From: Oscillospiraceae bacterium
Lineage (GTDB): Bacteria; Bacillota; Clostridia; Oscillospirales; Oscillospiraceae
NCBI GenBank assembly: GCA_017465025.1
Contig: JAFTXM010000113.1
Span: forward strand, 626 to 64,625
DNA length: 64,000 bases
Direction of reading: 5' to 3'
Below are positions 10,841-29,460 of this stretch, in pieces. Numbering within the stretch: position 1 is the first letter of the stretch; every line of letters begins with the position of its first letter. Position numbers and translations under genes: made by a program. The notes under the pieces were generated by a model that worked only from the letters and a program-made list of their open reading frames with translations, was not told where the DNA came from and made no database searches.

Positions 10841-10940
10841 ACAGTATATGTATTAATTTGTCAAGTATATTTTTTATGTCCTTGTAAATTAATGACTGTA
10901 GATATATAATGAGCCCAGTATTTTCAGGAGGTTTGGTTTT

Positions 10941-13554: not shown

Positions 13555-14724
13555 TTATCCACCGGAACGCAGACTTTGTATATACTGCTCCATGCGGTTA
13601 GCACTTTCACGCTTCATACCCGGCGTTGCATGTGCGTATGTGCTTAGTGTAAAAGCAGCTGTAGAGTGTCCCAGGTTTTCCTGCACCGTTTTGATATCAT
13701 CACCGGCACGCAGACTATTGACGGCGTATGTATGTCTCAAGTCGTGGAAACGAAGCTCCTCCAAACCTATCTCTGCCATAATCCTTTTGAAATTCATGTA
13801 AAGAGTCTTGTTGTTTATGTATCGACCCAACTCGTTCGTAAACACAAGATTCTTTTCATTATTCCATAGATTACCCGCCTGTATTGCCCACATATGCTGT
13901 TGGGCTTTTTGCTTTCTCAGGGCATCCATTACGTCAAAGGCTGCGGTGAGTACCCGGATTTTATCATTTTTGAGACTGCTGAAACTAAACTCCTTTTCGC
14001 CCTTTGCCCGGTTGTGCTGCTTGTTTATCAGCAGCGTGCCGTTTTCAAAGTCAACGCAGTCCCAAGTGAGGCCGAGCACCTCTCCTTGTCTTAGCCCGGT
14101 GAAAGCAGTTACAAATAATACAAGCTCATAGGGGTCCCCCTTGATGGCGTTCAAGAAGGATATTACATCAGAATCCTCCAGAGGCTTGATTTGTTTTTTC
14201 TCTACTCTGGGGAGTATGACAGCTTCCAAGGGATTAACCCGCAAGTAGCCAAGCTTCTTTGCCTGCTCAAGTGATCTGTGAAATACACCGTGAATGTTCT
14301 TTACAGACTTTGGAGAAAGGTGCATATCATCAAGCAGCATATTGTAAACCTTCTGAACCATATAAGGTGCAAGCTTGGTAAGCCGTATGTCACCTAGATA
14401 TGGTTTAAGATGTACCCGTACATGCTGTTCATATGCGCTCTTTGTTGCAGGCTTGATATTTCCAGTGTAATCCTTGAGCCAGATATCAAGCCAGTCTCCG
14501 AGTTTGATAGAGTTGGGTGCAACGAATGTCCCCTCATCAATCTCTCTTATTACCTGATTTAGCTTCTGGCGCACTTCCTTCTGAGTCTTGCCATAGATGG
14601 ATTTTTGAATCTGCTTTCCGGTCTTTGGATCAAAGCCTAAAGTGTATCGCGCCTCCCAGCGTCCATCCGAACGCTTCCTTATGGTGCCGCCTCCGCTGGC
14701 ACCTCTTGTCGTTTTTCCTGACAT
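13555..14724 (-). CDS. int: tyrosine-type site-specific integrase
   Basis: 389 aa. N-terminal SAM-like domain plus a catalytic domain with R...HDLRHT...LGH...Y motifs (RFHDLRHTYA, NLGHSTAAFTLSTYAH). Confidence 0.92.
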   Translation of the reverse strand: MSGKTTRGASGGGTIRKRSDGRWEARYTLGFDPKTGKQIQKSIYGKTQKEVRQKLNQVIREIDEGTFVAPNSIKLGDWLDIWLKDYTGNIKPATKSAYEQHVRVHLKPYLGDIRLTKLAPYMVQKVYNMLLDDMHLSPKSVKNIHGVFHRSLEQAKKLGYLRVNPLEAVILPRVEKKQIKPLEDSDVISFLNAIKGDPYELVLFVTAFTGLRQGEVLGLTWDCVDFENGTLLINKQHNRAKGEKEFSFSSLKNDKIRVLTAAFDVMDALRKQKAQQHMWAIQAGNLWNNEKNLVFTNELGRYINNKTLYMNFKRIMAEIGLEELRFHDLRHTYAVNSLRAGDDIKTVQENLGHSTAAFTLSTYAHATPGMKRESANRMEQYIQSLRSGG

Positions 14725-14762: not shown

Positions 14763-15683
14763 TCAGTCCATTCGTTTTCTTGCCCGCATACGGTCACTCT
14801 CAAGCCATTCAATGAACTCTTCAAAGTCCAGCTCACCGTTTAAGCACATATCCCGCTTTTCTCTGGCTTCCAGTGACCAGGCGTTGAACTCGTCCCTTGT
14901 CATCATCCCCTTACTCACACGGGCGTTGTGAGCCTTGTAGGAACGCTTGTATTCCTTTATAACAGGGTTTTCAAGAATTCTCTTCTCATAGATACGGAAG
15001 GAGCCCAAATCTTTACAGGTCTTACCGCCTGTTTGAGAAGCCTTACGACTGCAGTACTCGGTGTTGTAGTTGCCAACGATACCGAAGTACTTGCCGCAGT
15101 ATTTACACTTGCGGAAATTTATGCCGTAATTTATATAGTTTACAAGCATGAACGAGATAAGGTCTCTTGCAGAATCGGTGTGCAGTACCTCGGTATAGAA
15201 GGGCTCAGAAAGCTCTTCTTTGAGCCTATGCTGTTCTATGATATATTTCCTGTCCGGCAAGTCATACGCAAAGGGCCCAATATACCCGGTGCATACCTGC
15301 TCATAGCATATCCTGCCATAACCCAGGTTTTCGGGAATTACTTCCATCGGGAATATATCTTTCAGCCAAAGCTGAGCTTTCTGTAACTCAGATATATTTT
15401 CATTTGCTGCAATGACAGCAAACACAGGACTTTCCTCAAGAAGAAGCCGTATGTCCTTCTTATTTATATCTGCATAGATAAAGTCTGCTATGCCCTGACC
15501 TATGGGATACTCCCTGTGCCAAAGCAGAGTCTTCTCCTCACGAATTTCATAACATTCCCTCTTTCCGTCTGTATATGCGCAGACGGAAATTTTTTTATTT
15601 CCCTTCGACAAGATAAAACACTCCTTGCAAACCACTGTGTATATAATGCATTTAGACGACCTACTAAACACATTATATACCAA
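14763..15683 (-). CDS. hypothetical protein with C-terminal Cys cluster (CKYCGKYF...YCS...KTC)
   Basis: Long ORF in a compact arrangement with int. No motif I can assign. The start is uncertain. Confidence 0.5.
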   Translation of the reverse strand: MVYNVFSRSSKCIIYTVVCKECFILSKGNKKISVCAYTDGKRECYEIREEKTLLWHREYPIGQGIADFIYADINKKDIRLLLEESPVFAVIAANENISELQKAQLWLKDIFPMEVIPENLGYGRICYEQVCTGYIGPFAYDLPDRKYIIEQHRLKEELSEPFYTEVLHTDSARDLISFMLVNYINYGINFRKCKYCGKYFGIVGNYNTEYCSRKASQTGGKTCKDLGSFRIYEKRILENPVIKEYKRSYKAHNARVSKGMMTRDEFNAWSLEAREKRDMCLNGELDFEEFIEWLESDRMRARKRMD

Positions 15684-15924
15684 AGAGTCTATTAAGGCAA
15701 GCGAAAGGAGTCGAAGAATTATAGCATTTGAAAATCTTCCAAACGTACTCAGCGCAGAACAGTTGGCTCAGGTCTTGGGGATATCCCGGGCCGGGGCCTA
15801 TCAGCTTTTGCATACGGAGGGTTTCCCTACTCTGCGTATAGGCAAGCGTATGCTTGTACCGAGAGACAAACTGATGGAGTGGATAGACCGGAACACAGGA
15901 GGCGGCTATGCAGTGGGAGAATAA
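15625..15924 (+). CDS. xis: excisionase-type helix-turn-helix DNA-binding protein
   Basis: LSAEQLAQVLGISRAGAYQLL...FPTLRIGKRMLVPRDKLMEWI matches the MerR-like Xis/HTH_17 pattern. The start may be the ATG at 15646. Confidence 0.7.
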   Translation: MQTTVYIMHLDDLLNTLYTKESIKASERSRRIIAFENLPNVLSAEQLAQVLGISRAGAYQLLHTEGFPTLRIGKRMLVPRDKLMEWIDRNTGGGYAVGE

Positions 15925-17002
15925 GCAGGAATCCATTCCTGTGGGGCGGCCAAACGGGAATTCCAGAATGAACGCAGTTACAAAAGATCTGTATGAAATC
16001 GAAAGAGATTTGCAGCGGAAAATGAATCCTACATATCTTAAAACCTTTACCATGGCAGAGCTGTACGAAGAAGTGTTTGAAAGCAGGCCCTCAATAATCG
16101 AGGGCCTGCTGACAGTCGGCACATATATCCTTGCCGGAGCTCCCAAGCTCGGCAAGTCCTTTCTGGTGATGCAGTTTGCATGGCATATAAGTACTGGGGC
16201 TCCTATCTGGGGAATGGAGGTGATGCAAAGCCATGTACTGTATCTGGCTCTTGAGGACGACAAAAGAAGATTGCAAACAAGAATGTACCGGATGTTCGGC
16301 GAGGAGCCGACAGACAAGTTACATTTAACTGTTTACTCACGGAGCATAGGCGGCGGACTTATACAGCAGATAGAACATTTCATTGAGGAACACCGTGGTA
16401 CAAGGCTTGTTATCGTAGATACCCTGCAAAAGGTGCGGGATGCAAACAGGGAACAATACAGTTATGCAGGAGACTATGCTGAGATAGCTGAACTTAAGAA
16501 GCTTTCAGATAAGCACTCTATATGTATTATCCTTGTGCATCACACAAGAAAACAACAGGCGGAGGATGGCTTTGACATGATATCCGGCACTACAGGCTTG
16601 ATGGGGGCCGCTGACGGAGCCTTTCTCCTGCGTAAAGAGAGGCGCACAGCGAATACCGCTTCCCTGGAAGTTTCGGGACGTGACCAGCAGGATCAGAAGC
16701 TTTATTTGAAAAGGAACGAAGAAAGCCTGTGCTGGGAGCTGGAGAGTGTAGAGACCGAAATCTGGAAAGAAGCCCCGGAGCCGGTGTTAGGGCAGCTTAA
16801 CAGACTTATTGGGAATGCAGATCATTGGAGCGGCAGCCCCACGGAGCTGGTACAGGCTTTAGGTATAGATATGAAAGCCAATGCTCTGACATTTAAGCTG
16901 AACGCAAACGCCGGACGGCTGCATGATGAATATGGAATAAAATACAGCAGCAGCCGAAGTCACGCTGGGAGAAGAATTGAGCTTAAGCGTGACAATGCGT
17001 GA
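15908..17002 (+). CDS. RepA-like AAA/RecA-fold ATPase (AAA_25-type)
   Basis: Walker A GAPKLGKS, Walker B LVIVDTL, then ILVHHTRK. Typical of mobile-element replication/helicase-loader ATPases. Confidence 0.75.
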   Translation: MQWENKQESIPVGRPNGNSRMNAVTKDLYEIERDLQRKMNPTYLKTFTMAELYEEVFESRPSIIEGLLTVGTYILAGAPKLGKSFLVMQFAWHISTGAPIWGMEVMQSHVLYLALEDDKRRLQTRMYRMFGEEPTDKLHLTVYSRSIGGGLIQQIEHFIEEHRGTRLVIVDTLQKVRDANREQYSYAGDYAEIAELKKLSDKHSICIILVHHTRKQQAEDGFDMISGTTGLMGAADGAFLLRKERRTANTASLEVSGRDQQDQKLYLKRNEESLCWELESVETEIWKEAPEPVLGQLNRLIGNADHWSGSPTELVQALGIDMKANALTFKLNANAGRLHDEYGIKYSSSRSHAGRRIELKRDNA

Positions 17003-17228: not shown

Positions 17229-18353
17229 TTGAAAAGAACGATAAGCGCAATGTCCGGACCGGGAGTAATAGCCCACAACAGAAGAACATATACCGCAGCC
17301 AATGTTGACCGGGAACGTACAAAGGACAACATTGAGTACTGCTGCCAAGATATAAAGGATGTGTACCATGAGCTCTTTGATGAGGCTTTGGAAGAATACA
17401 ACGCCAAGCAAACCCGCAAGGATAGGATGATAGAAGACTACTACGAGAAGATACGCTCAGGGAAACAGGAGAAGCCCTTTTATGAGGTCATCTTCCAGAT
17501 AGGCAACAAGGACGATATGGCGGTAGGGACTCCCGAAGGAGACAAGGCTAAGGAAATTCTTCACCAGTTCATGCTGGGCTTTGAGGGAAGAAATCCACAG
17601 CTGAGAGTATTTTCCGCACACCTACATATGGACGAGGCAACACCTCATTTGCACATAGACTTTGTGCCCTTTATCACCAGCAGCAAGCGGGGCCTGTCAA
17701 CCAGAGTATCGCTGAAAAAGGCTCTTGAAGCGCAGGGCTTCAAAGGTGAGGGCAAGACCAGCAACGAGCGCATTCTCTGGATAGAGTCCGAGAAAGAAGC
17801 ACTGGCCGAGATAATGCACAGGCACGGTATAAAGTGGGAACAGAAAGGTACACACCTTGAGCATCTGGATGTGCTGAACTTCAAGAAAGAGCAGCGGGCC
17901 AGGGAGGTGGCCGAGCTTGAACATCGACTTGAGCAGCTGACGCCGGAGGTAGAAAATGCGGAGTATCTGGCTGAGGAGTATTCTAAATCTCCGGAAGAAA
18001 TACTCCCGGAAGCTGCACCGTTTGAGACGGCGAAGAGCTACCGGGAGAAAAAAGCTAAGCCTATAATTGAAAAGATGTCCAAAGTTATAATGTCAATATA
18101 CTCAGCCTACGTGAAGCTAAAGTGGAACTACGAAAGTATAGAAAGTATGTACCATCAGGAGAAGAAAAAAAATAACTTTCTGGAGTCATTGCTTAACTCT
18201 GCTTCAAAAGAGATGCGCTCCCTCAAGGCCAAGGCAAAAGACCTTGAGCGTGTGAAGAAATATTTCGGAAAAAGTAAAATAGACGAGGCTATAGAAGCCG
18301 TAAAACAGCAGGAGCGAACAAACAGCACAAGGGAAAAACTTTTTTCACGGTGA
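17229..18353 (+). CDS. mob: MobV-family relaxase (plasmid recombination enzyme Pre/Mob)
   Basis: N-terminal HNRR motif and HLHMDEATPHLHIDFVP (the HxDE...PHxH motif). Coiled-coil C-terminus. TTG start after AGGAGG. Confidence 0.85.
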   Translation: MKRTISAMSGPGVIAHNRRTYTAANVDRERTKDNIEYCCQDIKDVYHELFDEALEEYNAKQTRKDRMIEDYYEKIRSGKQEKPFYEVIFQIGNKDDMAVGTPEGDKAKEILHQFMLGFEGRNPQLRVFSAHLHMDEATPHLHIDFVPFITSSKRGLSTRVSLKKALEAQGFKGEGKTSNERILWIESEKEALAEIMHRHGIKWEQKGTHLEHLDVLNFKKEQRAREVAELEHRLEQLTPEVENAEYLAEEYSKSPEEILPEAAPFETAKSYREKKAKPIIEKMSKVIMSIYSAYVKLKWNYESIESMYHQEKKKNNFLESLLNSASKEMRSLKAKAKDLERVKKYFGKSKIDEAIEAVKQQERTNSTREKLFSR

Positions 18354-18597
18354 TAAAAGTTTTTCTCATCATTTGCTATGTTAAAGAGTGTATGAGAGCA
18401 CCGGTAAGGTATGCAAAAACTTATTTCCCGAGGAAAAAAGTTTTTTCGTGATTTAACTTGTGAAATAACGTGATACATTAAATGAGTTGAATGTACCATG
18501 CACATGATAAATTCATTTCCTGAGGAAATGAATTTATGCCATACATCTTCATCATCCATTTTATTCAGCTTTTTTACAGAAAAAACCAAATTGTTCC

Positions 18598-18625
18598 TTG
18601 ACATAGAATACGATTGTAGTACAAT
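18598..18625 (+). promoter_or_regulatory. sigma-A promoter of the cargo operon
   Basis: TTGACA, 16 nt, TACAAT, about 25 nt upstream of the RHH gene's GTG start. Confidence 0.65.
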
Positions 18626-18649
18626 AAAATGTGGATAGGAGTGACCACT

Positions 18650-18853
18650 GTGCAGAAACCGAAATTGCAGATTACGCAAAAGAAATATACCGAAGAAACC
18701 GCAATTATCTCCATGCGAATGCCCAAGGACATGCTGCGCGATATTGATGCCGTCGCATCACGGACGGGTCGCACCCGCAATGAAATTCTTATGCTCAGCA
18801 TGGAGTTTGCTTTGGATAATATAGAAATCAGCGATATAGAAAACAGAGAGTGA
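18650..18853 (+). CDS. ribbon-helix-helix (CopG/Arc-type) DNA-binding protein
   Basis: AIISMRMPKDMLRDIDAVASRTGRTRNEILMLSMEFAL fits the beta-strand/helix/helix RHH pattern. The ORF opens at 18629. The GTG at 18650 sits 8 nt after GGAG and downstream of the predicted -10. Confidence 0.7.
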   Translation: MQKPKLQITQKKYTEETAIISMRMPKDMLRDIDAVASRTGRTRNEILMLSMEFALDNIEISDIENRE

Positions 18854-18862
18854 GGTGAGGGC

Positions 18863-21800
18863 ATGGCAGTAATCAAATGTAAAATGTGCGGCGGAGATAT
18901 AGAACTCTCCACCGACAAAACATTCGGCACCTGCGAATATTGCGGCAGCACGATGACCCTGCCCAGAATTGACAATGAGCAGCGGGCGGCGGCCTTCAAC
19001 CGCGGCAACCATTTCCGCCGCATCGGTGAGTTTGACAAGGCTCTCGCCGTGTACGAGCGCATCGTGGCCGAAGATGACACGGACGCCGAGGCCCACTGGT
19101 GCTGTGTTCTCTGCCGCTTTGGCATAGAGTACGTGGAAGACCCGGAGACCTATGAGTATCTCCCCACCTGCCACCGTGCCAGCTTTGACAGCGTTCTGGA
19201 GGATGTGGACTATCTTGCCGCACTGGAGCACTCTGATGGTGTAACCCGCCGCCATTACCAGCGGGACGCGGCAAAGATTGCCGAGATACAGCGCGGCATC
19301 CTTGCCACCAGCCAGAACGCAGAGCCCTATGATGTTTTCATCTCCTATAAGGAACTGGACGCAAACGGCGAGCGCACCCGTGACAGCATTTTGGCTCAGG
19401 ATATATATTATCAGCTCACAGAGCGGGGCTGGCGTGTGTTCTTCTCCCGCATATCGCTGGAGGATGTCCCCGGCACCCAGTATGAGCCTTATATATTCGC
19501 TGCCCTCAACAGCGCAAAGGTCATGGTGGTTGTAGGTACAAGCGCCGAAAATCTCAATGCGGTTTGGGTCAAAAACGAGTGGAGCCGTTATCTCAGCCTC
19601 ATGCGCAAGGACAGAAGCAAGCTCCTTTTGCCCTGTTACCGGGATATGGACCCCTACGACCTGCCCGAACAGCTTGCCGTGCTCATGAGCTATGACATGG
19701 GCAAGATAGGCTTTTTGCAGGACCTTATCCGTGGTATCGGCAAAGTTCTGTCGGCGGACAAACCCAAAGAGCCTGAACGCGAGAACATCAAGGAAACCGT
19801 TGTTGTCCAGCATGCCTCCAACACCAATATCTCCGCCCTCTTAAAGCGCGGCGCAATGGCCCTTGAGGATGGGGACTGGGAAAAGGCCGACGGCTTTTTC
19901 GAGGAAGTGCTCAACCACGACGCTGAGTGCGTGGGCGCATACATAGGCAAGACCCTTTATGAGACAAAGAGCCATAGCCTTGACGAGTTTGTAAAGAAGC
20001 TTCTTGAGAAGCACAGACAGGACAGCTTTAAAACTCTGTATATTGAAAAAGACGCAGAGCATATAAATGCCTCTGTAAAGAAATTTGCTCTCCCCGGCTA
20101 CCTGAAAACCGAGGAGATACTCCCACTATATGACTATAAGCTCCAGTACAGCAGCAGGGTGGACAGCCGCCTGCTGCAAAAGGAGCAGACCCTCAAGGAC
20201 TGGGATAGCTACAAATGGCTTGCCCGTGCCCAGCGCTTTGACCCCGAGGAAAAAGACCCCTCCCTTACCCGGGCCAAAAGAGAGCTTAATAATCAGCTTG
20301 AGCGCAGGATAAAGGAAGCCCAGCGGGAAGAAGAGGAAGAAAAGAAAAAGCTTGAAGCCGCCTATGCCGCCCACCTTGCCAAGGCGGATGAAAAGGCAAA
20401 AGCTGCCTACGACAATGCTGCCAAGCGCCGTGAGGCGGATTACCAGAGCTATCTGAAATCTGCAAAATACGAAAACGACATCGCCAAGCTCCACAACACC
20501 GCCAAGCTCTTTGAGGCCCTGAACGGATACAAGGACAGTGCAGCACAGGCTGAAGGCTGCCGCAGCAAAGCGGCGGAGATAAAGCGCCGTCAGGAGCTTG
20601 AGGCAGCACGCCTGAAAGCCGAGCGCGCCGAGAGAACCAAGAAAGCCGCCATCATCATAGGCACGGTGGCAGCTCTCGCCGCCGCAGTGATTCTCGTAAT
20701 AACCACTGTTATCCCCGCAATGAAATATTCCTCCGCACAGGAAGCTCTTGAGGCCGGAAACTATGACGAGGCCATCGCCGCCTTTACCGCCCTTGATGAC
20801 TATAAGGACAGCGCACAGCAGGCGGAGCATGCCAACAACCTGAAAATTGCGGAGCTTGAGCGTATAGCAGCGGAAAAAGCAGCAGAAGCCGCCCGCCTTG
20901 AGGCGGAAAGACAGGCCGCCATAGAGGCGGAAGAAAAAGCCCGTCAGGAGGCCGAAGCAGCCCGCCTTGAGGCCGAAGCCGCCGCAGAGCAGGCCCGTCT
21001 TGAGGCTGAGGAAGCCGCAGAGCAGGCCCGTCTTGAAGCTGAGGCTGCTGCCGAGGCAGCACGCCTTGAAGCCGAAGCAGAAGCAGAGCGCGCCCGTATA
21101 GCCGCGGAAGAAGCTGCAGAGAAAGCCCGCATAGAGGCCGAAGAAGCGGCCAGACTTCTCTACGAAAGCTCCCTTGAAGGCAGGTACGAAGCTGCCATGG
21201 AGTTGATGGAAGAAGGAAAACTCCCTCAGGCCGCCGTGGCCTTTGGCCAGATTGCAGACTATAAGGATGCCAAGGCACTTAGTCTTGCTCTCTGGGATGA
21301 AATAGACCTCGGTGATACCATATCCGCCGGTAACGGGCACACGGTGTGCCTCATGTCCGACGGCAGCGTTAAAACCGTTGGACGATACGGCAACATAGGC
21401 GGCAACGGATATATTTCTGTCAGCGCCGGGCATTACTCAACATCTGCGACTAAGGCCGACGGTTCGGTGTACACTGTTAGATTTGACACCGCCGTCAGTC
21501 ACCAAGTAGAGAGCACCACAGCGCCTGCGGAAAATCTTCCGACGGATATTGTTGCTGAAAGCGGCGGGTATGGTCTGAGATTTGACGGTACAATAGTAGG
21601 CAATCACTATGAAACCGATTTTTATGGTGATGTAAGTGGCTGGACAGATATAATTGCAATAGAAGCCACAAATAATCATGTTGTTGCTCTCAGAACTGAC
21701 GGTACTGTAGTAGCCTCAGGAACAAGCGAGGACGGCCAGTGCGATGTAGGCGAATGGACAGATATTGTGGCTATCAGTGCAAGTGCTTCTCACACTCTTG

Positions 21801-23938
21801 GACTGAAAGCCGATGGTACAGTCGTAGCCACCGGCAGAAACAATTGCGGTCAGTGCAATGTGGGTGAATGGACAGGCATTGTAGCCATCAGCGCCGGCAA
21901 TGAACACAGCGTGGGTCTCAAGGCCGACGGCACAGCCGTGGCCGTGGGCGACAATTTCCGCGGACAGTGCGATGTGAGCGAGTGGACAAATATCGCCATG
22001 CCGGGCAGTCTGGACTATGGCAGACTGTACCGCAAGGCCGAAGCCCAGCTTGCACGGGGCAACAAGGGCGCGGCGGCCATCAGCTTCTACAAGGCCGGAA
22101 AATTTGCGGACGCCAGAGAGCGCAGCATGGCCCTCTGGGATGAAGTTGCCGTAAGAGACACCATCTCCGCAGGAAGGGACTTTGCTCTTGGGCTGACTGC
22201 TGGGGGCAAAGTGTGCGCTACTGAGATTTATGCTGAGCCTAATTATCACACCTCATTTGGCAATTCCCAATTAAATAATTGGAGAGATTTAAGTGCTGTC
22301 AGTGCAGGTTATGCGTATACCCTTGGCCTTAAGTCAAACGGCGAAGTTTTGATGGGGATATATGATCCCAGATATGACAAAGATAATCGGAATTTGGCTG
22401 AAGATTGGACGGATATAGTTGCGGTCAGCTCCGGGCATAGCCATGCTGTGGGCCTGCGCGCAGACGGTACTGTATTATCAACAGGCTTTATCGCAAGTGA
22501 TGTCGGTGCATGGACAGATATAGTGTCCGTCTCCGCGGGGTATATGTTCACTGTCGGTTTGCGTACCGACGGCACAGTGCTGGCAGATGGAACCAATACA
22601 TATAATCAATGCAATGTGTCCGACTGGACGGATATCGTAGCCATCAGTGCAGGAAATAATCACACAGTTGGCCTTAAATCCGACGGCACTGTGGTGGCTA
22701 CGGGACACAATGGCAACGGCCAGTGCGATGTTGGTGAGTGGACGGATATCGTGGCCATCAGTGCAGGTGTAGACCACACTGTGGGTCTTAAAGCTGACGG
22801 TACAGTGGTGGCAGTGGGCGATGATTTCTGCGGTCAGTGTGATGTGAGCAGCTGGAGGAATGTTGTTGCGGTCTCTGCTGCAAGTACATACACAATAGCC
22901 CAATGCACAGACGGCGGTATGCTCATCACCGGTGACAACAATTCACGCAGCGAGAGCCTGAGCGCGGTCAAGGACTGGACAGATATAAAGCTCCCCACAT
23001 ATATGCTTTTTTCTCTCGACAGAGGCCTCGTTGCCAATATCGCCATGACCTTATTCAAATCTGGGGATGTCAAGGGCAGCATGAAGCTGTGGGATGAGCT
23101 CGTGGCAAGGAATTCCGTCGCTGCCAAAGCTTGGGGTACTGTCACAGTGAAAGTAGACGGTACTGTTGCACAAACAATTGATATTGATTATTCAGGATTT
23201 CAAAAATATGGATATTGGGTCCCCCCAAAAGATTTGGGTGTGAGCAGCTGGAGAAATATCATCGAGATAAGCGCAGGTGACAATCATATTGTTGGCCTCA
23301 AATCCGATGGTACTGTGTTGGTAGCCAGACCAGACAACTCCTATGAATTTCCTTATTACAGCCAAAGAGATGTAGGCAACTGGAGAGACCTCGTGTCCGT
23401 CAGTGCCGGAGATATTCATACACTTGGATTGAAGGCAGATGGCACGGTGGTAGCCGTAGGTCAGAATGTAGATGGCCGCTGTGATGTGAGCGAATGGACA
23501 GATATCGTGGCCATCAGCGCAGGCAATTCACACAGTGTAGGCCTAAGGTCCGACGGCACCGTGGTAGCGGTTGGCGGTGAAAGATACGGTCAGTGCGATG
23601 TGAGCGACTGGACAGACATCGTTGCTGTCAGTGCAGGTGGTACTCATACGGCAGGACTCAAAGCCGACGGCACAGTAGTGGCTGTTGGCAGCAATATATA
23701 CGGTCAATGCAATGTAGGAGACTGGACAGACATTGTGGCCATCAGCGCCGGAGTATCTTACACCGTCGGCATGAAAGCTGACGGCACATTGGTGGTCGTT
23801 GGCGGTGGCAGGCGCGGAGAGGGTGACATCTCCGAATGGACAGATATTGTGACACTCAGCTCTAAAGACTGTATAGGCTTGAAAGCTGACGGTACTGTAG
23901 TGACCGTGAATATAACCAAGCCAATTAACGGAAGATGA
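18863..23938 (+). CDS. 1691-aa protein: zinc ribbon, TIR domain, TPR/coiled coil, single TM helix, Ala/Glu-rich stalk, then three RCC1-like beta-propeller modules
   Basis: CKMCGG..CEYCGS ribbon. TIR from about aa 154 to 292 (YDVFISYKE...AVWVKNEWSR). TM at aa 595-619 (AAIIIGTVAALAAAVILVITTVIPA), preceded by RAERTKK. About 20 blades of the form IVAISAGxxHTVGLKADGTVVAxG. Confidence 0.9.
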   Translation: MAVIKCKMCGGDIELSTDKTFGTCEYCGSTMTLPRIDNEQRAAAFNRGNHFRRIGEFDKALAVYERIVAEDDTDAEAHWCCVLCRFGIEYVEDPETYEYLPTCHRASFDSVLEDVDYLAALEHSDGVTRRHYQRDAAKIAEIQRGILATSQNAEPYDVFISYKELDANGERTRDSILAQDIYYQLTERGWRVFFSRISLEDVPGTQYEPYIFAALNSAKVMVVVGTSAENLNAVWVKNEWSRYLSLMRKDRSKLLLPCYRDMDPYDLPEQLAVLMSYDMGKIGFLQDLIRGIGKVLSADKPKEPERENIKETVVVQHASNTNISALLKRGAMALEDGDWEKADGFFEEVLNHDAECVGAYIGKTLYETKSHSLDEFVKKLLEKHRQDSFKTLYIEKDAEHINASVKKFALPGYLKTEEILPLYDYKLQYSSRVDSRLLQKEQTLKDWDSYKWLARAQRFDPEEKDPSLTRAKRELNNQLERRIKEAQREEEEEKKKLEAAYAAHLAKADEKAKAAYDNAAKRREADYQSYLKSAKYENDIAKLHNTAKLFEALNGYKDSAAQAEGCRSKAAEIKRRQELEAARLKAERAERTKKAAIIIGTVAALAAAVILVITTVIPAMKYSSAQEALEAGNYDEAIAAFTALDDYKDSAQQAEHANNLKIAELERIAAEKAAEAARLEAERQAAIEAEEKARQEAEAARLEAEAAAEQARLEAEEAAEQARLEAEAAAEAARLEAEAEAERARIAAEEAAEKARIEAEEAARLLYESSLEGRYEAAMELMEEGKLPQAAVAFGQIADYKDAKALSLALWDEIDLGDTISAGNGHTVCLMSDGSVKTVGRYGNIGGNGYISVSAGHYSTSATKADGSVYTVRFDTAVSHQVESTTAPAENLPTDIVAESGGYGLRFDGTIVGNHYETDFYGDVSGWTDIIAIEATNNHVVALRTDGTVVASGTSEDGQCDVGEWTDIVAISASASHTLGLKADGTVVATGRNNCGQCNVGEWTGIVAISAGNEHSVGLKADGTAVAVGDNFRGQCDVSEWTNIAMPGSLDYGRLYRKAEAQLARGNKGAAAISFYKAGKFADARERSMALWDEVAVRDTISAGRDFALGLTAGGKVCATEIYAEPNYHTSFGNSQLNNWRDLSAVSAGYAYTLGLKSNGEVLMGIYDPRYDKDNRNLAEDWTDIVAVSSGHSHAVGLRADGTVLSTGFIASDVGAWTDIVSVSAGYMFTVGLRTDGTVLADGTNTYNQCNVSDWTDIVAISAGNNHTVGLKSDGTVVATGHNGNGQCDVGEWTDIVAISAGVDHTVGLKADGTVVAVGDDFCGQCDVSSWRNVVAVSAASTYTIAQCTDGGMLITGDNNSRSESLSAVKDWTDIKLPTYMLFSLDRGLVANIAMTLFKSGDVKGSMKLWDELVARNSVAAKAWGTVTVKVDGTVAQTIDIDYSGFQKYGYWVPPKDLGVSSWRNIIEISAGDNHIVGLKSDGTVLVARPDNSYEFPYYSQRDVGNWRDLVSVSAGDIHTLGLKADGTVVAVGQNVDGRCDVSEWTDIVAISAGNSHSVGLRSDGTVVAVGGERYGQCDVSDWTDIVAVSAGGTHTAGLKADGTVVAVGSNIYGQCNVGDWTDIVAISAGVSYTVGMKADGTLVVVGGGRRGEGDISEWTDIVTLSSKDCIGLKADGTVVTVNITKPINGR
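20891..21157 (+). repeat. tandem 33-nt (11-aa, ARLEAEAAAEQ-like) coding repeat, about 6-8 units
   Basis: Units start at 20960, 20993, 21026, 21059, 21092 and 21125 (GCCCGYCTTGARGCYGAR...). Confidence 0.8.
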
Positions 23939-24005
23939 CTTGACCAATATTTGTGTACCCAATACATAAACAACTAAGAATAAACCATAAACGAGGGGAT
24001 AAGCC

Positions 24006-26879
24006 ATGGCATTGATAAAATGCAAAATGTGCGGCGGTGATCTGAAAATCACCGAGGGTCTGACCGTTGCCGAGTGCGAATACTGCGGCAGCAGGCAGAC
24101 CATTCCCAGCGCAGACAACGAAAAGAAAATGACCCTCTTCACCAGAGCTGCCAGGCTTCTGCGCGGCTGCGAGTTTGACAAGGCGGCGGGCCTTTTCGAG
24201 AGCATAGTGGCGGACTTTCCCGAGGAGGCGGAGGCCTACTGGGGCTTGGTGCTGTGCAAATACGGCATTGAGTACGTGGACGACCCTGCCACCGGCAAAA
24301 AGGTGCCCACCTGCCACCGCTCCAGCTTCGACAGCGTTCTGGACGATGCCAACTTCGAGCAGGCCTGCGAGAATACCGACGCTGTTGCCCGCCGGGTCTA
24401 CCGGGACGAGGCGCGGCAGATAGAGGAGCTTCGCAAGCGCATCATTGAAGTCTCCGGCAGGGAAGAGCCCTATGATGTTTTCATATCCTACAAGGAGACG
24501 GACGAAAACGGCCAGCGCACTTTAGACAGCGTTATTGCTCAGGACATATACGATGAGCTGAGTGGAAAAGGCTATCGTGTGTTCTTCTCACGTATCAGCC
24601 TTGAGGACAAGCTGGGTGTTGAGTATGAGCCTTACATATTTGCTGCCCTCAATAGTGCAAAGGTAATGCTTGTTATAGGAACAGACTTTGAAAACTTTGA
24701 TGCGGTTTGGGTAAAAAACGAGTGGAGTCGGTTTCTAAAACTTATAGAGGCGGGTCAAAAGAAGGTACTTATCCCTGTTTTCAAGAATATAGATGCCTAT
24801 GACATGCCTAAGGAATTTAACAAACTCTCTGCACAGGATATGGGTAAGGTAGGCGCAATGCAGGATCTTGTTCGTGGTGTTGAGAAAATTATTCCGATTA
24901 CAAAAAACACTTTTGATACGACCCATGAACGAAGCACCACAGTCAATTCAGCCGGTGATAAAATTGCCTCTTTGCTTGACAGAGGTAAAATGGCATTAGA
25001 GGATAGTGATTGGGACAAAGCTACCGGTTTCTTTGAGGAAGTTCTAAACAACAACTCAAAAAATTCTCATGCTTATCTGGGAAAGGTTTTGGCTGAGGAA
25101 AAATGCAGTAATGCTGATGCTCTCATACTGTTACTAGATCAAATAGGCGAAGTAGAATTTGAGACCCTGAAGCTCTCTTCAAACCAAAACCATATACTGG
25201 ATATGGCTAACTGTTATCATGTTGAAGGATATCTTTCTAAATCGGAAGTAATAACGCTTTATAATTATGATCTTAGCTATACATCTAAAGTGCGTCCTTT
25301 TGAAGAAATACTTGAAAGTAAGAAAAAATGGTTTGAATATAACAAAAATTTTGCTCGAGCTGAACAGTTTGCCTCTTCTGAGTTAGCAACGCTGATAGAG
25401 TACATAAAGAACTCTGTTTTGGGCAGATGCAATACGATGCTTGCAGAGGAAAAGGAACATGAAAAAGAGACAAAGGAAAAACTTTGCTCTGCCTATGAAA
25501 AGCATATAGAAAAGATAGACGAAGAGGTAAAAAAACTAAATGCCAAGGCTGTTTCTAAGCGTGATGCAGACTATGATGTATGGACAGCAAACATTGAAAT
25601 AGAATCAGTTCCTGCGCATCTGCTGAATACTGCTACTAAGCTTGATGGACTGAACGGTTACAAAGACAGTTCTATTTTCGCGAAGAAAGCGAGAGATAAG
25701 GCCGCTGTTGAGCAAGCGAAACTGGATGCTGCAATTGAAATAGCAAACCTAAAAAAAGCTAAGACAAAAAAACTTAGTATTCTTGCTGCAATAGCGATTG
25801 TAATTGTCGCAACTGCTTTTTTCACAGTAACAGAAATTGTTATTCCCGCCAATGATTACAAAGCAGCAGAAGCATTAGTTGATGCGGGGAAATACGAAGA
25901 AGCAATTGCTGCCTTTGAAACATTGAAAGGATATAAGGATTCTGAAGAAAGATACCAAGAACTTTCTGAACATGTAGCTCGAGAAAAGGCAGAAGCTGAA
26001 ATAAAAAAGCATAACCCCAACAGTTTTATTTCTGCTGGTTTCTACCATACTGTGGGTTTGAAATCCGATGGTACGGTAATATCTACGGAGTATACTGGTA
26101 TATTTTCTGGTAGTCGGTGTGATGTGTATGGTTGGCGTGACATTGTATCAATAAGTGCTGGAGAAAATCTTACTTTAGGGCTTAAATCAGATGGTACAGT
26201 GGTTGCTGCAGGAGAAAGTGATTATTTAACTCAAATACTATCTTGGCAAGACATCATATCTATTAGCACATGGAATTATCATGCTGTAGGTTTACGGTCA
26301 GACGGCACTGTTGTTGTTGCGGGGAAGAATGGCGTTAATGACGATAGATGTAATGTAGATGATTGGCGTGACATCGTAGCAATAAGCGCAGGACAATGGT
26401 TTACTGTAGGCCTTAAATCAGACGGTACAGTAGTTGCTGTTGGGAGTAAGGAAGATGGACGATGCGATGTGAGCGAATGGACAGACATTGTTGCTATAAG
26501 TACAGGCTCTAGTCACACTGTAGGGCTTAAATCAGATGGAACAGTAGTTGCTGTTGGAAATAATAAACATGGTGCATGCAATGTTGGTGAATGGACAGAT
26601 ATTGTAGCAATCAGTGCTGGAAACATGCATACTGTAGGTCTGAAATCAGATGGCACGGTGGTAGCAACTACACACACGGGGACTTTTTATAACGGATGGT
26701 GTGATGTTGGTGAATGGACAGATATTGTAGCAATCAGTGCTGGACGAGACCACACCGTAGGTCTAAAGTCAGATGGCACGGTTGTAGCCACTAAGTACAT
26801 AGGGGACTATTATTGTGGACAGTGCGATGTGTCTGACTGGTCAGATATTAAACTTCCTGAAAAAGAAGTAGGAGTGTAA
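24006..26879 (+). CDS. 957-aa paralogue: zinc ribbon, TIR, TPR/coiled coil, single TM helix, one seven-bladed RCC1-like propeller
   Basis: Collinear with the first 300 aa of the 1691-aa protein, with identical spacing (YDVFISYKE at 156, VWVKNEWSR at 234-242). TM at aa 590-614. Seven blades of the form IVAISAGxxHTVGLKSDGTVVA. Confidence 0.9.
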   Translation: MALIKCKMCGGDLKITEGLTVAECEYCGSRQTIPSADNEKKMTLFTRAARLLRGCEFDKAAGLFESIVADFPEEAEAYWGLVLCKYGIEYVDDPATGKKVPTCHRSSFDSVLDDANFEQACENTDAVARRVYRDEARQIEELRKRIIEVSGREEPYDVFISYKETDENGQRTLDSVIAQDIYDELSGKGYRVFFSRISLEDKLGVEYEPYIFAALNSAKVMLVIGTDFENFDAVWVKNEWSRFLKLIEAGQKKVLIPVFKNIDAYDMPKEFNKLSAQDMGKVGAMQDLVRGVEKIIPITKNTFDTTHERSTTVNSAGDKIASLLDRGKMALEDSDWDKATGFFEEVLNNNSKNSHAYLGKVLAEEKCSNADALILLLDQIGEVEFETLKLSSNQNHILDMANCYHVEGYLSKSEVITLYNYDLSYTSKVRPFEEILESKKKWFEYNKNFARAEQFASSELATLIEYIKNSVLGRCNTMLAEEKEHEKETKEKLCSAYEKHIEKIDEEVKKLNAKAVSKRDADYDVWTANIEIESVPAHLLNTATKLDGLNGYKDSSIFAKKARDKAAVEQAKLDAAIEIANLKKAKTKKLSILAAIAIVIVATAFFTVTEIVIPANDYKAAEALVDAGKYEEAIAAFETLKGYKDSEERYQELSEHVAREKAEAEIKKHNPNSFISAGFYHTVGLKSDGTVISTEYTGIFSGSRCDVYGWRDIVSISAGENLTLGLKSDGTVVAAGESDYLTQILSWQDIISISTWNYHAVGLRSDGTVVVAGKNGVNDDRCNVDDWRDIVAISAGQWFTVGLKSDGTVVAVGSKEDGRCDVSEWTDIVAISTGSSHTVGLKSDGTVVAVGNNKHGACNVGEWTDIVAISAGNMHTVGLKSDGTVVATTHTGTFYNGWCDVGEWTDIVAISAGRDHTVGLKSDGTVVATKYIGDYYCGQCDVSDWSDIKLPEKEVGV

Positions 26880-26882
26880 ATT

Positions 26883-28739
26883 ATGGGGAAATTTGTAATT
26901 GAATGTCCCTCGTGTGGACGATATGCGGAAGCCAAGACAGGCTTTTTCGCAAAAAAGAAGATAGACTGTGAGTGCGGCTACACCATCGATGTGCTCACGG
27001 ACAAACTGACAACAAGGGTCTGCCCTCACTGTGACAGCACCTTTGTCTATGACCAGTCGGTCAAGGGAAAAGTGCGCTGCCCCGCCTGTAAAAGCTGGGT
27101 CATACCCTCTGAGGATGATACAAAGCTGGTTAGAATTGCCTGTGAGCAGTGCGGCATTATTCTGCTGCCCACAATGACCGCTGAGACTTACACCTGCCCC
27201 GTCTGCGACCATGTCAACGATGTGCAGCGACTTCTGGTGCAGGACAAGATAAAGAAGGACGGCCTTGCCAGCATCATACGCTACGAGGGTGACAACAACA
27301 CCCTCGTCTGGAAGCACCCCATTGAGGACTTCAACTTCGGCTCGCAGCTCATCGTCCACGAGAGTCAGGAGGCCATCTTCTTTCAGGACGGTCAGGCCCT
27401 TGACCTTTTCGGCGCAGGCCGATACACCCTTGAAACCCAGCAGCTTCCCATCCTTGAGAAGTTCTACAAGCTGCCCACCGATACCGAGGGCACCTTCCAC
27501 TCCGAGGTCTACTTTATCAACAAAGTGGTGCAGATGGCCATCAAGTGGGGTACTCCGGAAAAGCTGCGCTTCATCGACCCCCTCACCGGCGTTCCCCTTG
27601 AGCTGGGCGCATCCGGCGAGATGAACATTCAGGTGTCCGACTCCAGAAGGCTGCTTTTGAAGCTGGTTGGCACCATGAAGGGCATCGCATGGGATTCCGG
27701 CGATGGCCTTGCAAAGTCCCTGCAGAGCGTTTTCCGCCCCCTTATCACCACCGCGGTCAAGGCAAATCTGGCCGGCGTCATCAAGGACGAGGCCATAGAC
27801 ATTCTGGAAGTGGACGCAAAGCTGGAGCTTATCTCCGAGAGACTACGCGAGAAGCTGCTTCCCGGCTTTGAGGAATACGGCCTTACCATCCCCCAGTTTT
27901 ATGTGACCACCGTTGTCCTCCCGGAGGATGACCCCAACTTCAAGCGCATCCGTGAGTTACATACCATTACTCTCCAGACCCGCGTGATTCAGGCCGAGGC
28001 CGTGGTAAAAACCGCCGAGGCACAGGCACAGGCTCAGTACCGCGTGGCAGAGGAGCAGAGCGCCGCCGCCATCGAGAGCGCCCACCGTGAGGCCGTCATG
28101 CAAAAGCAGACCACCGAGACGGAGGTTGCCCGCGCGGCAGCCGAGCGCCGGGTCATCGAGGCTCAGGCTGAGGCACAGGCACAGCGCATGGCCGGGCTCA
28201 CCGAGGCGGAGATCATGGCCGCCAAGGGCTACACCGAAAAAGACGTCATTCAGGCCGATGTGCAGAAGGCCTACGCCGAGAGCATCGGCAACATGGGCCC
28301 CGCCATTTCTGCCGGAGGCGGCAGCAGCGGTATTCTGGGCGATATGCTGGGTCTTGGCGTGGGCATGGCCGCGGCCGGTGTCGTCGCGCCCCAGATAGGG
28401 GAGATGATGCAGGGCTTTAAGATGCCCGCACAGGCCCCTGCTGCCCCGGCAGCGCCCGTGGCTTCTGGATGGGATTGCCCTGCCTGCGGCACAAAGAACG
28501 TCCAGAGCCGTTTCTGCCCCGACTGCGGCGCTAAGAAGCCGGAGCGGGATGTGAGCTGGGATTGCCCCGTCTGCGGTGAAAAGGACATAGCCTCCAACTT
28601 CTGCCCCACCTGCGGCGCAAAAAGGCCCAGCAGCGCATGGGACTGCCCTGAGTGCGGAATGAAAGGCATCAGCAGTAAGTTCTGCCCAAACTGCGGCCAC
28701 CGGAGCACTCTTGACAGTGCAATGGAGGTTCAGGTATGA
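26883..28739 (+). CDS. SPFH/Band-7 domain protein (YdjI / 'virion core protein' type) with three N-terminal and three C-terminal zinc ribbons
   Basis: N-terminal CPSC..CEC, CPHC..CPAC and CEQC..CPVC. Core IIRYEGDNNTLVWKHP...IVHESQEAIFFQDGQ...YFINK is typical of the Band_7_1 SPFH subfamily. This is followed by an Ala/Gln coiled coil, a Gly-rich hydrophobic segment, and 3 x WDCPxCGxK..S.FCPxCG. Confidence 0.85.
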   Translation: MGKFVIECPSCGRYAEAKTGFFAKKKIDCECGYTIDVLTDKLTTRVCPHCDSTFVYDQSVKGKVRCPACKSWVIPSEDDTKLVRIACEQCGIILLPTMTAETYTCPVCDHVNDVQRLLVQDKIKKDGLASIIRYEGDNNTLVWKHPIEDFNFGSQLIVHESQEAIFFQDGQALDLFGAGRYTLETQQLPILEKFYKLPTDTEGTFHSEVYFINKVVQMAIKWGTPEKLRFIDPLTGVPLELGASGEMNIQVSDSRRLLLKLVGTMKGIAWDSGDGLAKSLQSVFRPLITTAVKANLAGVIKDEAIDILEVDAKLELISERLREKLLPGFEEYGLTIPQFYVTTVVLPEDDPNFKRIRELHTITLQTRVIQAEAVVKTAEAQAQAQYRVAEEQSAAAIESAHREAVMQKQTTETEVARAAAERRVIEAQAEAQAQRMAGLTEAEIMAAKGYTEKDVIQADVQKAYAESIGNMGPAISAGGGSSGILGDMLGLGVGMAAAGVVAPQIGEMMQGFKMPAQAPAAPAAPVASGWDCPACGTKNVQSRFCPDCGAKKPERDVSWDCPVCGEKDIASNFCPTCGAKRPSSAWDCPECGMKGISSKFCPNCGHRSTLDSAMEVQV

Positions 28740-29422
28740 AAAGCAGTAAAGTGAGATTTTACATAGTCCTTGCGGCGGTGCTGGTGCTCTTTTGCGTAAT
28801 CGCGCTGCTTGTGCCCTTCGCAAGAGGCTTTGTGTTCTGGCTGAGCTTTGCCGCTGCCGTCTTTGCCATTCTCATTCAGCTCTACGCTATGCCAAGAGCC
28901 ATGCAGGGCGACGCCAGAAGCAAATATTACGGCTTCCCCATCCTGCGCATCAGCTTTATCTACCTTGTGGTTCAGCTTGCTCTGAGCCTTGTGTTCATGG
29001 CCCTTGGCAGCTTTATCCCATGGTGGGTGCCTGCCATGGTTTATATTGTTCTCGCCTGCGTTGCTCTTGTTGGCTTTGTGGCTGCCGATTCCGTCCGTGA
29101 AGAGGTACAGCAGCAGGACGAGGAGATCAAAAACAAGGTGCAGCTCATGCGCTCTCTCCAGTCCAGAGCCAATGTGCTGGCCGGACAGTTTGAAAGCGGC
29201 GAGGCCGGCAAGGCATTGAAGAAATTTGCCGAGGATATGCGCTATTCCGACCCTGTCAGCGTGGATGCCATAGCCGATGCGGAAGCGGAGCTTATCGTCG
29301 CCATAGATAACCTTCAGCAGGCTGTGATAGATGCCAACGAGGCCGATATTGTCACCCTCTGCCGCAAAGCCACCGCCGCCCTTGCCGAGCGCAACCGCCT
29401 CTGCAAGCTCAATAAGCACTGA
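28736..29422 (+). CDS. membrane protein: 4 predicted TM helices plus a cytoplasmic coiled-coil tail (no recognisable family)
   Basis: ATGA start/stop overlap with the SPFH gene. Hydrophobic helices lie at about aa 8-28, 32-52, 66-88 and 94-116, followed by an acidic helical tail. Confidence 0.7.
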   Translation: MKSSKVRFYIVLAAVLVLFCVIALLVPFARGFVFWLSFAAAVFAILIQLYAMPRAMQGDARSKYYGFPILRISFIYLVVQLALSLVFMALGSFIPWWVPAMVYIVLACVALVGFVAADSVREEVQQQDEEIKNKVQLMRSLQSRANVLAGQFESGEAGKALKKFAEDMRYSDPVSVDAIADAEAELIVAIDNLQQAVIDANEADIVTLCRKATAALAERNRLCKLNKH

Positions 29423-29427
29423 AATAG

Positions 29428-29460
29428 ATCACCCTGCCCGATATGAGCAGGGTGATTTTT
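29428..29460 (+). terminator. rho-independent terminator ending the cargo operon
   Basis: ATCACCCTGC-ccgatatga-GCAGGGTGAT followed by TTTTT. Confidence 0.85.

Follow-up and report, generated by a model that had tools for sequence, protein, structure and literature searches.

The receptor gene and its operon

The DNA analyzed here is a 64,000-nt stretch, referred to below as the window, from an Oscillospiraceae bacterium (GCA_017465025.1, contig JAFTXM010000113.1, positions 626 to 64,625 of the forward strand). It harbors a gene for a 1,691-aa protein, designated receptor A, which is predicted from its sequence to be a type II single-pass membrane receptor with the TIR domain ahead of its one transmembrane (TM) helix. 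The open reading frame (ORF) starts with ATG downstream of a Shine-Dalgarno sequence, GGTGAGG. The protein is deposited in GenBank as MBQ8217714.1, "TIR domain-containing protein [Oscillospiraceae bacterium]," from an Oscillospiraceae metagenome-assembled genome, and four metagenome contigs carry the identical protein in an identical context. An initial annotation, made from the sequence alone, had described the domains of receptor A. Every motif that it listed was found in its place when the sequence was reread, and it missed the operon, the paralog of receptor A, and the mobile element that are described in this section.

Receptor A is followed on the same strand by the gene for its paralog, receptor B, and by genes for an SPFH protein and a polytopic membrane protein of 228 aa (Table 1). 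Receptor B is 49 to 59% identical to receptor A in the N-terminal 300 aa. The SPFH protein consists of three N-terminal zinc ribbons, the Band_7_1 domain, a coiled coil, a Gly-rich hydrophobic segment, and three C-terminal zinc ribbons; its sequence returned only zinc-ribbon noise when compared with PDB, and NCBIfam gave nothing meaningful for any protein of the operon. The junction between the receptor genes measures 67 nt, that between receptor B and the SPFH gene 3 nt, and that between the SPFH gene and the 228-aa gene -4 nt (an overlap), and the last two suggest translational coupling. The small ORF ahead of receptor A probably encodes a ribbon-helix-helix regulator; its homolog in locus L006 has a weak match to RHH_1, and a weak match resembling the BrnA antitoxin was also obtained. 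The terminator-like hairpin behind the operon was read directly from the sequence, as a scan restricted to loops of 3 to 8 nt passed over it.

The cassette lies in a 16.3-kb integrative mobilizable element inserted in tRNA-Tyr. The 25-bp repeat that bounds the element was found by comparing the two flanks with each other, and a search within each flank alone found none. The integrase, the relaxase, and the cassette are situated between the two repeats, so the receptor cassette is the only cargo of the element.

Table 1. Features of receptor A, its operon, and the surrounding element. Coordinates are those of the window, and numbers preceded by L refer to loci of relatives.
Feature	Coordinates	Strand	Evidence or remark
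tRNA-Tyr	13279-13363		ARAGORN
attL, 25-bp direct repeat TTCGAATCCACCTTCCCCCACCAGA	13341-13365		3' end of tRNA-Tyr
Tyrosine integrase	13555-14724	-	Pfam Phage_integrase, Phage_int_SAM_3, Arm-DNA-bind_4
DUF6076 protein, element backbone	14763-15683	-	Pfam, E 5.8e-23; also adjoins homologous cassettes in L008-L010
AAA_25 (RepA/DnaB-like) ATPase	15908-17002	+	Pfam, E 6.9e-29
Mob_Pre relaxase	17229-18353	+	Pfam, E 3.1e-19; makes the element mobilizable
Promoter-like site, TTGACA-16-TACAAT	18598-18625	+	11/12 matches to a sigma-70-like consensus, best in 18300-29700; consensus match only
Small ORF, 74 or 67 aa	18629-18853	+	Homolog upstream of the receptor in 28/90 loci
Receptor A	18863-23938	+	1,691 aa; zinc ribbon, TPR, TIR, helical domain, TM helix, stalk, three propellers
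Cys4 zinc ribbon, aa 4-33 (C6, C9, C24, C27)	18872-18961	+	Three beta-hairpin strands in the model
TPR-like helices and conserved beta-hairpin, aa 38-152	18974-19318	+	Pfam TPR_7, model, conservation
TIR domain, aa 155-297	19325-19753	+	Pfam TIR_2, model, Foldseek
VWVKNEW motif with WxxxE (W235, E239), putative catalytic Glu	19562-19582	+	L6 alignment, 98 homologs
Helical/TPR-like domain, aa 323-458	19829-20236	+	Confident model, block pLDDT mostly >90 (82-96)
Long cytoplasmic helices, aa 466-536 and 559-594	20258-20644	+	Joined at the GYKDS turn; model
Single TM helix as signal anchor, aa 595-619	20645-20719	+	Kyte-Doolittle 2.85, positive-inside bias in the family
Ala/Glu-rich stalk, aa 634-783	20762-21211	+	One helix of ~150 residues in the model; composition
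Propeller 1, aa 815-1035	21305-21967	+	Six recognizable blades, most degenerate; low pLDDT in the first blades
Propeller 2, aa 1095-1360	22145-22942	+	Seven three-stranded blades
Propeller 3, aa 1415-1685	23105-23917	+	Seven three-stranded blades
Receptor B, 957-aa paralog of receptor A	24006-26879	+	Same architecture, one seven-bladed propeller, TM helix at ~aa 590-608
SPFH (Band_7_1) protein, 618 aa	26883-28739	+	Band_7_1, E 3.2e-35; DZR, Zn_ribbon_3
Polytopic membrane protein, 228 aa, C-terminal helical domain	28736-29422	+	Kyte-Doolittle peaks at aa 8, 38, 98
Intrinsic-terminator-like hairpin	29428-29460	+	10-bp perfect stem ATCACCCTGC/GCAGGGTGAT, 9-nt loop, T5
attR, second copy of the 25-bp repeat	29594-29618		Exact 25-mer, two occurrences in the window

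The cytoplasmic head and its TIR domain

Residues 1 to 660 of receptor A were modeled with AlphaFold2 on 58 sequences, with a mean predicted local distance difference test (pLDDT) value of 79.7. The protein begins with the Cys4 zinc ribbon, whose motifs, CKMCGG and CEYCGS, occupy aa 6 to 11 and aa 24 to 29, respectively, and whose four cysteines are invariant or nearly so in alignments of 58 and 98 homologs. The TPR-like helices that follow include a Pfam TPR match at aa 48 to 76. Beside the ribbon there is a conserved Cys/His cluster (H78, W79, C80, C81, C84, C103, and H104; nt 19094 to 19177, aa 78 to 105), which could represent a second metal or redox site of the cytoplasmic head.

The initial annotation had placed a TIR domain at about aa 154 to 292, and both sequence and structure comparisons bear this out. 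TIR_2 (PF13676) matches aa 158 to 279 of receptor A at an E value of 6e-10, scoring 40.1 bits against a cutoff of 28, and the corresponding score of receptor B is 38.1 bits. In the model, aa 155 to 297 contain four β-strands, as assigned by DSSP, that alternate with helices, as in the β-α core of TIR domains. Foldseek matched this region with a probability of 1.00 to 7uxu (AbTir), 6wt6, 7uxr, 5uzb, 8isy, and 7jlx, a set of solved structures that includes AbTir, oyster TIR-STING (6wt6), BtTir, MAL, SPARTA, and Roq1; the target-normalized template modeling score of the receptor A domain against AbTir 7uxu is 0.73.

The domain retains the WxxxE motif that had been pointed out within VWVKNEW (aa 234 to 240). 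The TIR domain of flax L6 (3ozi) aligns with receptor A at an E value of 0.002, with W-V-K-N-E of the query lying over W-C-L-M-E of L6, and E239 thereby falls on the L6 glutamate that marks the catalytic position of plant TIRs. W235, V236, N238, E239, and W240 are invariant in 98 homologs, whose identity to the first sequence of the alignment extends down to ~33%. Invariance of the motif glutamate and its neighbors among homologs this divergent is what an active site would be expected to show, and we infer that the TIR domain of receptor A may have NADase activity.

Behind the TIR domain the model shows a disordered linker (aa 301 to 320), a helical domain, and a coiled coil of long helices, of which the last (aa 559 to 630) is a single helix that continues from the cytoplasm straight through the membrane segment. 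The GYKDS/DYKDS motif that was reported to recur on both sides of the TM helix does so, with GYKDS at aa 555 to 559, DYKDS at aa 646 to 650, and a related DYKDA at aa 799 to 803.

Membrane topology

The single hydrophobic helix described in the initial annotation has a 19-residue Kyte-Doolittle mean of 2.85, and there is no other peak of 1.5 or higher in receptor A. The basic sequence RAERTKK directly precedes it, at aa 588 to 594. The N terminus has no hydrophobic segment, in agreement with the claim that a signal peptide is absent, and the sole TM helix is preceded by 594 residues that include the Cys4 zinc ribbon. In Sec-dependent insertion, proteins of this kind insert with the N terminus inside and with the helix as a signal anchor.

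The charge distribution around the helix was surveyed in 98 complete ORFs of the family, drawn from 80 species-representative genomes; 73 of these ORFs encode a TM helix. Within the 15 flanking residues, Lys and Arg together average 5.5 on the N-terminal side versus 1.8 on the C-terminal side, and they are more numerous on the N-terminal side in 71 of the 73 members. RCC1_2 multi-propellers of the same kind are found in other proteins after signal peptides, in several cases together with other repeat domains, or after kinase-TM modules, and one propeller homolog carries CW_binding_2. The positive-inside bias, the lack of a signal peptide, and the extracytoplasmic position of the propellers in other proteins make the predicted topology of receptor A, with the N terminus in the cytoplasm and the repeats outside, well supported, as the initial annotation had proposed from the basic residues. 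A secreted virulence TIR protein similar to TcpB or TcpC was considered and rejected on account of the absence of a signal peptide, the N-terminal Cys4 ribbon, and the positive-inside bias.

The ectodomain

The ectodomain, aa 621 to 1691, was modeled with an alignment of multi-propeller homologs whose coverage had been checked (A6). It replaced an alignment (A5) that was dropped because single-propeller homologs forced onto the 1,071-aa ectodomain had their cytoplasmic parts misaligned. The model has a mean pLDDT of 68.8 and a predicted template modeling score of 0.37, and its canonical blades are mostly above 85 in pLDDT.

An Ala/Glu-rich stalk had been noted after the TM helix, and residues 656 to 800 are indeed 34% Ala and 26% Glu. 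Modeled as one continuous helix with a rise of 0.15 nm per residue, the stalk would be ~22 nm long, sufficient to bridge a large part of a Gram-positive wall.

The RCC1_2 profile matches receptor A at an E value of 1e-87 in 12 stretches, and both the spacing of the motifs and the strand pattern of the AlphaFold model give a blade count of 6 + 7 + 7 = 20. The initial estimate of about 20 RCC1-like blades in three blocks was thus correct in number and arrangement; the blades, for which it had given a length of 38 to 45 aa, range from 33 to 50 aa and are mostly 38 aa long. The LWDE linkers that were said to introduce the blocks are present as LWDEI at aa 810, LWDEV at aa 1091, and LWDEL at aa 1409, and in the model a helical hairpin ending in LWDE precedes each propeller block. 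The suggestion of three seven-bladed propellers holds for blocks 2 and 3. Block 1 has six recognizable blades, the first two or three of which are modeled with low confidence, and closure of the ring is uncertain.

In Foldseek searches the best match to the propellers was BLIP-II (E ~1e-19), followed by UVR8 and RCC1, and a match was also obtained to the propeller ectodomain (7a0j) of ACR4, a plant receptor kinase. BLIP-II is a secreted β-lactamase inhibitor that forms a seven-bladed propeller with short blades. BLIP-II and the ACR4/CR4 ectodomains, the best structural matches, are both extracellular, although their identity to the receptor A propellers is only 15 to 18%. Unlike in these proteins, three propellers follow one another in a single chain of receptor A, after a long helical stalk.

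Distribution of the family and exchange of ectodomains

When the N-terminal 320 aa of receptor A were used as a query, 3,872 cluster representatives (50% identity) were retrieved at an E value of ≤1e-30. Among the best 150 matches, the alignment nearly always begins at residues 1 to 3, and the proteins are 310 to 1,895 aa in length. Relatives occur in at least 365 species-level genomes, from which 80 species-representative loci were kept. The hosts of these loci are mostly gut or rumen Clostridia (Oscillospiraceae, Lachnospiraceae, Ruminococcaceae, and Acutalibacteraceae), including some cultured isolates. Homologs are present, for instance, in R. flavefaciens MC2020 and Lachnospiraceae NE2001.

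An SPFH gene is present on the same strand within a few kilobases in 54 of the 80 loci, and in 16 of the 20 loci with long flanks; the gene for the 228-aa protein accompanies the SPFH gene in 44 of the 80. When the search was started from SPFH homologs instead, each of the three loci examined had two to four genes of the TIR family grouped about a single SPFH-membrane pair. Two or more receptor genes are found in 26/80 loci, and the arrays comprise one to four receptors.

The SPFH homologs are 70 to 80% identical over their full length. Receptors are ~60% identical over aa 1 to 660 and 40 to 50% identical in the ectodomain, and conservation is highest in the cytoplasmic 320 aa (60 to 88% identity among the best-scoring representatives of the 50%-identity clusters). 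In 71 regions C-terminal to the TM helix, we found DUF6273 (33 regions), RCC1_2 (21), LRR_5 (4), LRR_8 (3), and Flg_new (3), with TPR-like repeats among the others. LRRs of the BspA type and Listeria-Bacteroides repeats (Flg_new) are typical domains of Firmicute surface proteins. Judging from these sequences, the SPFH hub is constant while the ectodomains of the receptors (DUF6273, RCC1, and LRR) are swapped.

Defense candidates recognized by PADLOC are inserted in or beside homologous cassettes, namely, PDC-S31 (DUF2971), PDC-S04/SoFic (E 3e-63), PDC-M03A, and HNH. Among 2.9 million viral contigs, only two family loci were found, and a phage-borne system was rejected on this ground. We found no published description of a TIR-TM-SPFH family in the literature searched, which is not proof of absence, and the literature that we found on TIR together with RCC1 concerns amoebal and animal TIR proteins only.

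Diversity-generating retroelements in relatives

In loci L006 (4660 to 12985), L021 (8001 to 12532), and L058 (4124 to 8566), a DUF6273-type receptor gene is followed immediately by genes for Avd and for a reverse transcriptase (RT), and Avd is also present at the receptor loci L063 and L068. Between the Avd and RT genes there is a template repeat whose sequence corresponds to the receptor gene at its 3' end. The mismatches between template and variable repeat fall on template adenines in 16/16, 19/20, and 24/26 cases in L006, L021, and L058, respectively. Adenine-specific mismatches together with Avd and RT are the signature of diversity-generating retroelements (DGRs), and the sequences thus identify the DUF6273-type family members in these three loci as DGR targets. 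DUF6273 is described as a C-type-lectin-like domain of phage receptor-binding proteins that are targeted by DGRs (PMC10743442).

Neither RT nor Avd is encoded in the 64-kb window, which rules out a DGR acting on the receptors of the window itself. The hypermutation therefore bears on the family and not directly on receptor A. In the second receptor gene of L006, the variable repeat (10829 to 11034) lies beyond the predicted stop codon, within a distinct 57-aa ORF. A frameshift, a stop introduced by the DGR, or collapse of variants during assembly could account for this.

Comparison with known systems

The initial annotation had compared receptor A with animal Toll-like receptors (TLRs). The part of the comparison that stands is the predicted combination of a repeat ectodomain, a single TM helix, and a TIR domain on the cytoplasmic side; the orientation of the chain differs, as receptor A is of type II rather than type I. 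TLRs and the interleukin-1 receptor family share with the receptors described here the single membrane pass, the ectodomain built of repeats, the cytoplasmic TIR, and the occurrence of repertoires with differing ectodomains. In addition, some homologs in the family carry LRRs, and clustering induced by a ligand is a natural model of activation for both. In contrast to TLRs, the TIR domain here is N-terminal and there is no signal peptide, the ectodomain is of the RCC1/BLIP-II type instead of LRR, the glutamate of the NADase-type WxxxE motif is kept, the partner is an SPFH protein, and no gene for an adaptor TIR was seen in the cassette. Nothing beyond membership in the TIR superfamily points to a descent shared with TLRs.

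The TIR proteins of bacterial defense systems (ThsB, TIR-STING, TIR-SAVED, the TIR-APAZ protein of SPARTA, and AbTir) resemble receptor A in the TIR fold and the conserved glutamate, in a weak similarity to the ThsB hidden Markov model, and in their context of mobile elements or defense islands. To our knowledge, the characterized examples of ThsB, TIR-STING, TIR-SAVED, SPARTA, and AbTir are soluble and sense cytoplasmic cues, whereas receptor A has a TM helix and a predicted extracytoplasmic sensor of 1,070 aa. No partner gene for ThsA, a cyclase, SAVED, or Argonaute is present in the cassette. A Thoeris system was also considered. It was rejected, as the element contains no ThsA gene (SIR2 or Macro/TM with SLOG) and the full-length protein is without a PADLOC match; the isolated TIR domains reach E values of only 0.03 and 7e-4 against the ThsB model.

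The Hanks-type receptor Ser/Thr kinases of Firmicutes, which follow the logic of the PASTA kinases, are likewise of type II, with a cytoplasmic head, one TM helix, and a C-terminal sensor. The receptor kinases found here possess the same set of ectodomains (RCC1_2, DUF6273, and LRR_5) and occur in tandem arrays. In L091 (553 to 16100), for example, five receptor-like Ser/Thr kinases stand in tandem after a PP2C phosphatase, with no SPFH gene nearby. The difference thus lies in a kinase head with a PP2C partner and no SPFH versus a TIR head with SPFH. Many of the kinase-RCC1 proteins found here also begin with a CxxC motif (e.g., MEEMFFCPSCM).

In composition, the SamGHI/YdjGHI membrane-stress module of Bacillus subtilis recalls the cassette, with a Band_7_1-type SPFH protein that works with zinc-ribbon and polytopic membrane proteins. 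It differs from the cassette, in which the SPFH protein itself bears six fused zinc ribbons, there is no PspA gene, and the genes are linked to TIR receptors and carried by a mobile element. A further likeness is to the DGR-diversified conflict sensors of multicellular bacteria (PMC10907252), in which hypermutated C-type-lectin-like sensors are joined to TIR-type effectors. Those sensors belong to STAND NTPase or MoxR/vWA systems; a cytoplasmic location is predicted for many of them and a periplasmic or secreted one for some (PMC10907252). In the family described here, which occurs in Clostridia, the sensor is instead fused directly to the TIR via a TM helix, and the receptors of the window are of the RCC1 type with no DGR in the window. 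The closest bacterial analogs are the receptor kinases with the same ectodomains and the DGR-diversified lectin sensors with TIR effectors (PMC10907252).

Possible function of the cassette

The function that we consider most likely, at about an even chance, is that of a surface-sensing TIR conflict or defense system. The cassette is best classed as a putative TIR conflict system in which a transmembrane receptor arm is combined with an SPFH hub. In such a system, the SPFH protein and the 228-aa membrane protein would form a membrane platform that holds one to four receptors with differing ectodomains. A multivalent external ligand, most plausibly a phage particle or else a surface structure of foreign origin, would bind the ectodomains and cluster the receptors, and the rigid helix would relay this clustering to the TIR domains. 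Oligomerization of these domains may then yield an active form that cleaves NAD+, as is known for TIR enzymes of bacteria, plants, and animals. The cleavage would deplete NAD+ or make a signal, and the cell would be arrested or killed before the invader multiplies. The proposal draws on the constant SPFH hub with its variable receptors, on the diversification of the ligand-binding end by DGRs in relatives, and on a context of conflict, given by the mobile element, the defense candidates in or beside homologous cassettes, and the near absence of the family from viral contigs.

Several observations weigh against this proposal. A TM helix is lacking in 25 of the 98 family members, eight of which carry the sensor domain DUF6273 (five) or RCC1_2 (three). 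The members lacking a TM helix are found in L014, L022, L040, L044, L067, L073, and others, and in L040 and L044 two of them stand on either side of one SPFH-membrane pair. External sensing is thus not obligatory for the family, whose members would accordingly act as sensors on either side of the membrane; we can only speculate that phage structural proteins, being present on both sides at different stages of infection, would fit this pattern. The occurrence of the same ectodomains on receptor kinases accompanied by PP2C could indicate that the environment in general or the envelope is sensed and that immunity is not involved. By type, the SPFH partner is a YdjI/SamI protein, and proteins of this type serve membrane-stress signaling in B. 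subtilis (PMC8581546; bioRxiv 10.64898/2026.02.06.704340). At full length, the operon proteins have no match among the PADLOC models, and the isolated TIR domains give weak matches only, to PDC-S66 and ThsB. Finally, the confidence of the ectodomain model is only moderate, and propeller 1 is poorly resolved in it.

Some of these points raise the possibility of an envelope-stress or wall-status sensor, in which the ectodomains would read the cell's own wall or membrane, as in PASTA kinases, the SPFH pair would act like SamGHI/YdjGHI, and the TIR would tune NAD+ metabolism or the growth state. The Band_7_1 SPFH protein with its zinc ribbons and the polytopic protein recall the composition of YdjG, YdjH, and YdjI, the parallel receptor kinases with their PP2C phosphatase share the ectodomains, and the operon proteins match no known defense model. 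However, one would not expect to find a housekeeping sensor as all that a mobilizable element carries, nor in arrays of two to four divergent paralogs, nor with its ligand-binding domain hypermutated by DGRs. The operon showed no pspA gene either, and we regard this function as rather unlikely. Also to be weighed is a role in recognition of other cells or of the host. The ectodomains would then recognize other bacteria (kin or non-kin, in contact-dependent conflict) or host glycans, and the TIR would execute arrest or death upon contact with non-self. DUF6273 (C-type-lectin-like; PMC10743442), BspA-type LRRs, and Listeria-Bacteroides repeats are ectodomains of the adhesin or lectin type, the hosts inhabit dense gut communities, and the DGR targets of cellular genomes are described mainly as proteins of cell-cell and cell-surface interaction (PMC7517822). 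The cassette, however, is without genes for a partner toxin, immunity, or secretion, the members that have the same sensor domains and no TM helix fit poorly with recognition purely between surfaces, and genes of defense candidates are embedded in homologous cassettes, all of which makes this role quite unlikely in our judgment.

A further possibility is a purely structural TIR, in a protein that would be mainly an adhesin or wall-associated scaffold and whose TIR would serve as a noncatalytic oligomerization module that anchors the protein to an SPFH raft. Such a protein would hardly account for the invariance of the motif glutamate and its neighbors in 98 divergent homologs, for a cytoplasmic region that is the most conserved part of the protein, or for the versions that have no TM helix. 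Even though a scaffolding role is common among TIR domains (review, PMC7075850) and the long stalk and propellers, as modeled, resemble a surface-display architecture, this explanation appears very unlikely.

If the cassette is indeed a surface-sensing conflict or defense system, bacterial TIR immunity would gain an outward-facing receptor arm in addition to cytoplasmic sensing, with a swappable repertoire of receptors, hypermutated by DGRs in some relatives, feeding a conserved hub. The receptor-TM-TIR logic would have arisen in bacteria, which would make convergence versus shared ancestry a testable question, and flotillin-like SPFH proteins would organize immune receptors, an echo of raft-dependent TLR signaling that is meant as an analogy only. 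A more far-reaching possibility, which we put forward only tentatively and consider doubtful, is a counterpart of TLR immunity in gut Clostridia: a germline repertoire of membrane TIR receptors, some somatically hypermutated by DGRs, that would recognize phage particles or other foreign surfaces externally from an SPFH platform and respond by NADase activity no later than the entry of the genome. Clostridia of the human and ruminant gut, in which few defense systems have been tested, carry the family in abundance. Linked to an enzyme inside the cell, ectodomains diversified by DGRs could also be of use as programmable binders with a built-in readout. Should the function not be immunity, a three-gene module with thousands of clusters and without functional annotation would still be a notable gap.

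Other features of the window

Outside the element, the window is ordinary chromosome, with genes for FtsZ, AlaRS, ComEC, and RF3. A gene for tRNA-Thr (13184 to 13259) lies just upstream of tRNA-Tyr. A GH25 lysozyme gene adjoins the cassette both in the window (12129 to 13028, minus strand, outside attL) and in the unrelated locus L005 (16309 to 17205), which may reflect a shared chromosomal neighborhood or coincidence. About 5 kb outside the element there is a gene of the Sir2 family (34842 to 35558, plus strand; 238 aa), whose product has the size of a housekeeping deacetylase and is not ThsA-like; it is kept apart from the receptor system here. Near the right end of the window, a large serine recombinase (60788 to 62458, minus strand; Resolvase, Recombinase, Zn_ribbon_recom, and DUF4368) suggests a second mobile element. 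An ORF of 922 aa without a Pfam match (53492 to 56260, plus strand) is overlapped over nearly all of its length by an antisense ORF of 893 aa (53513 to 56194, minus strand), and this region, 53492 to 56260, has the highest G+C content of the window (0.563).

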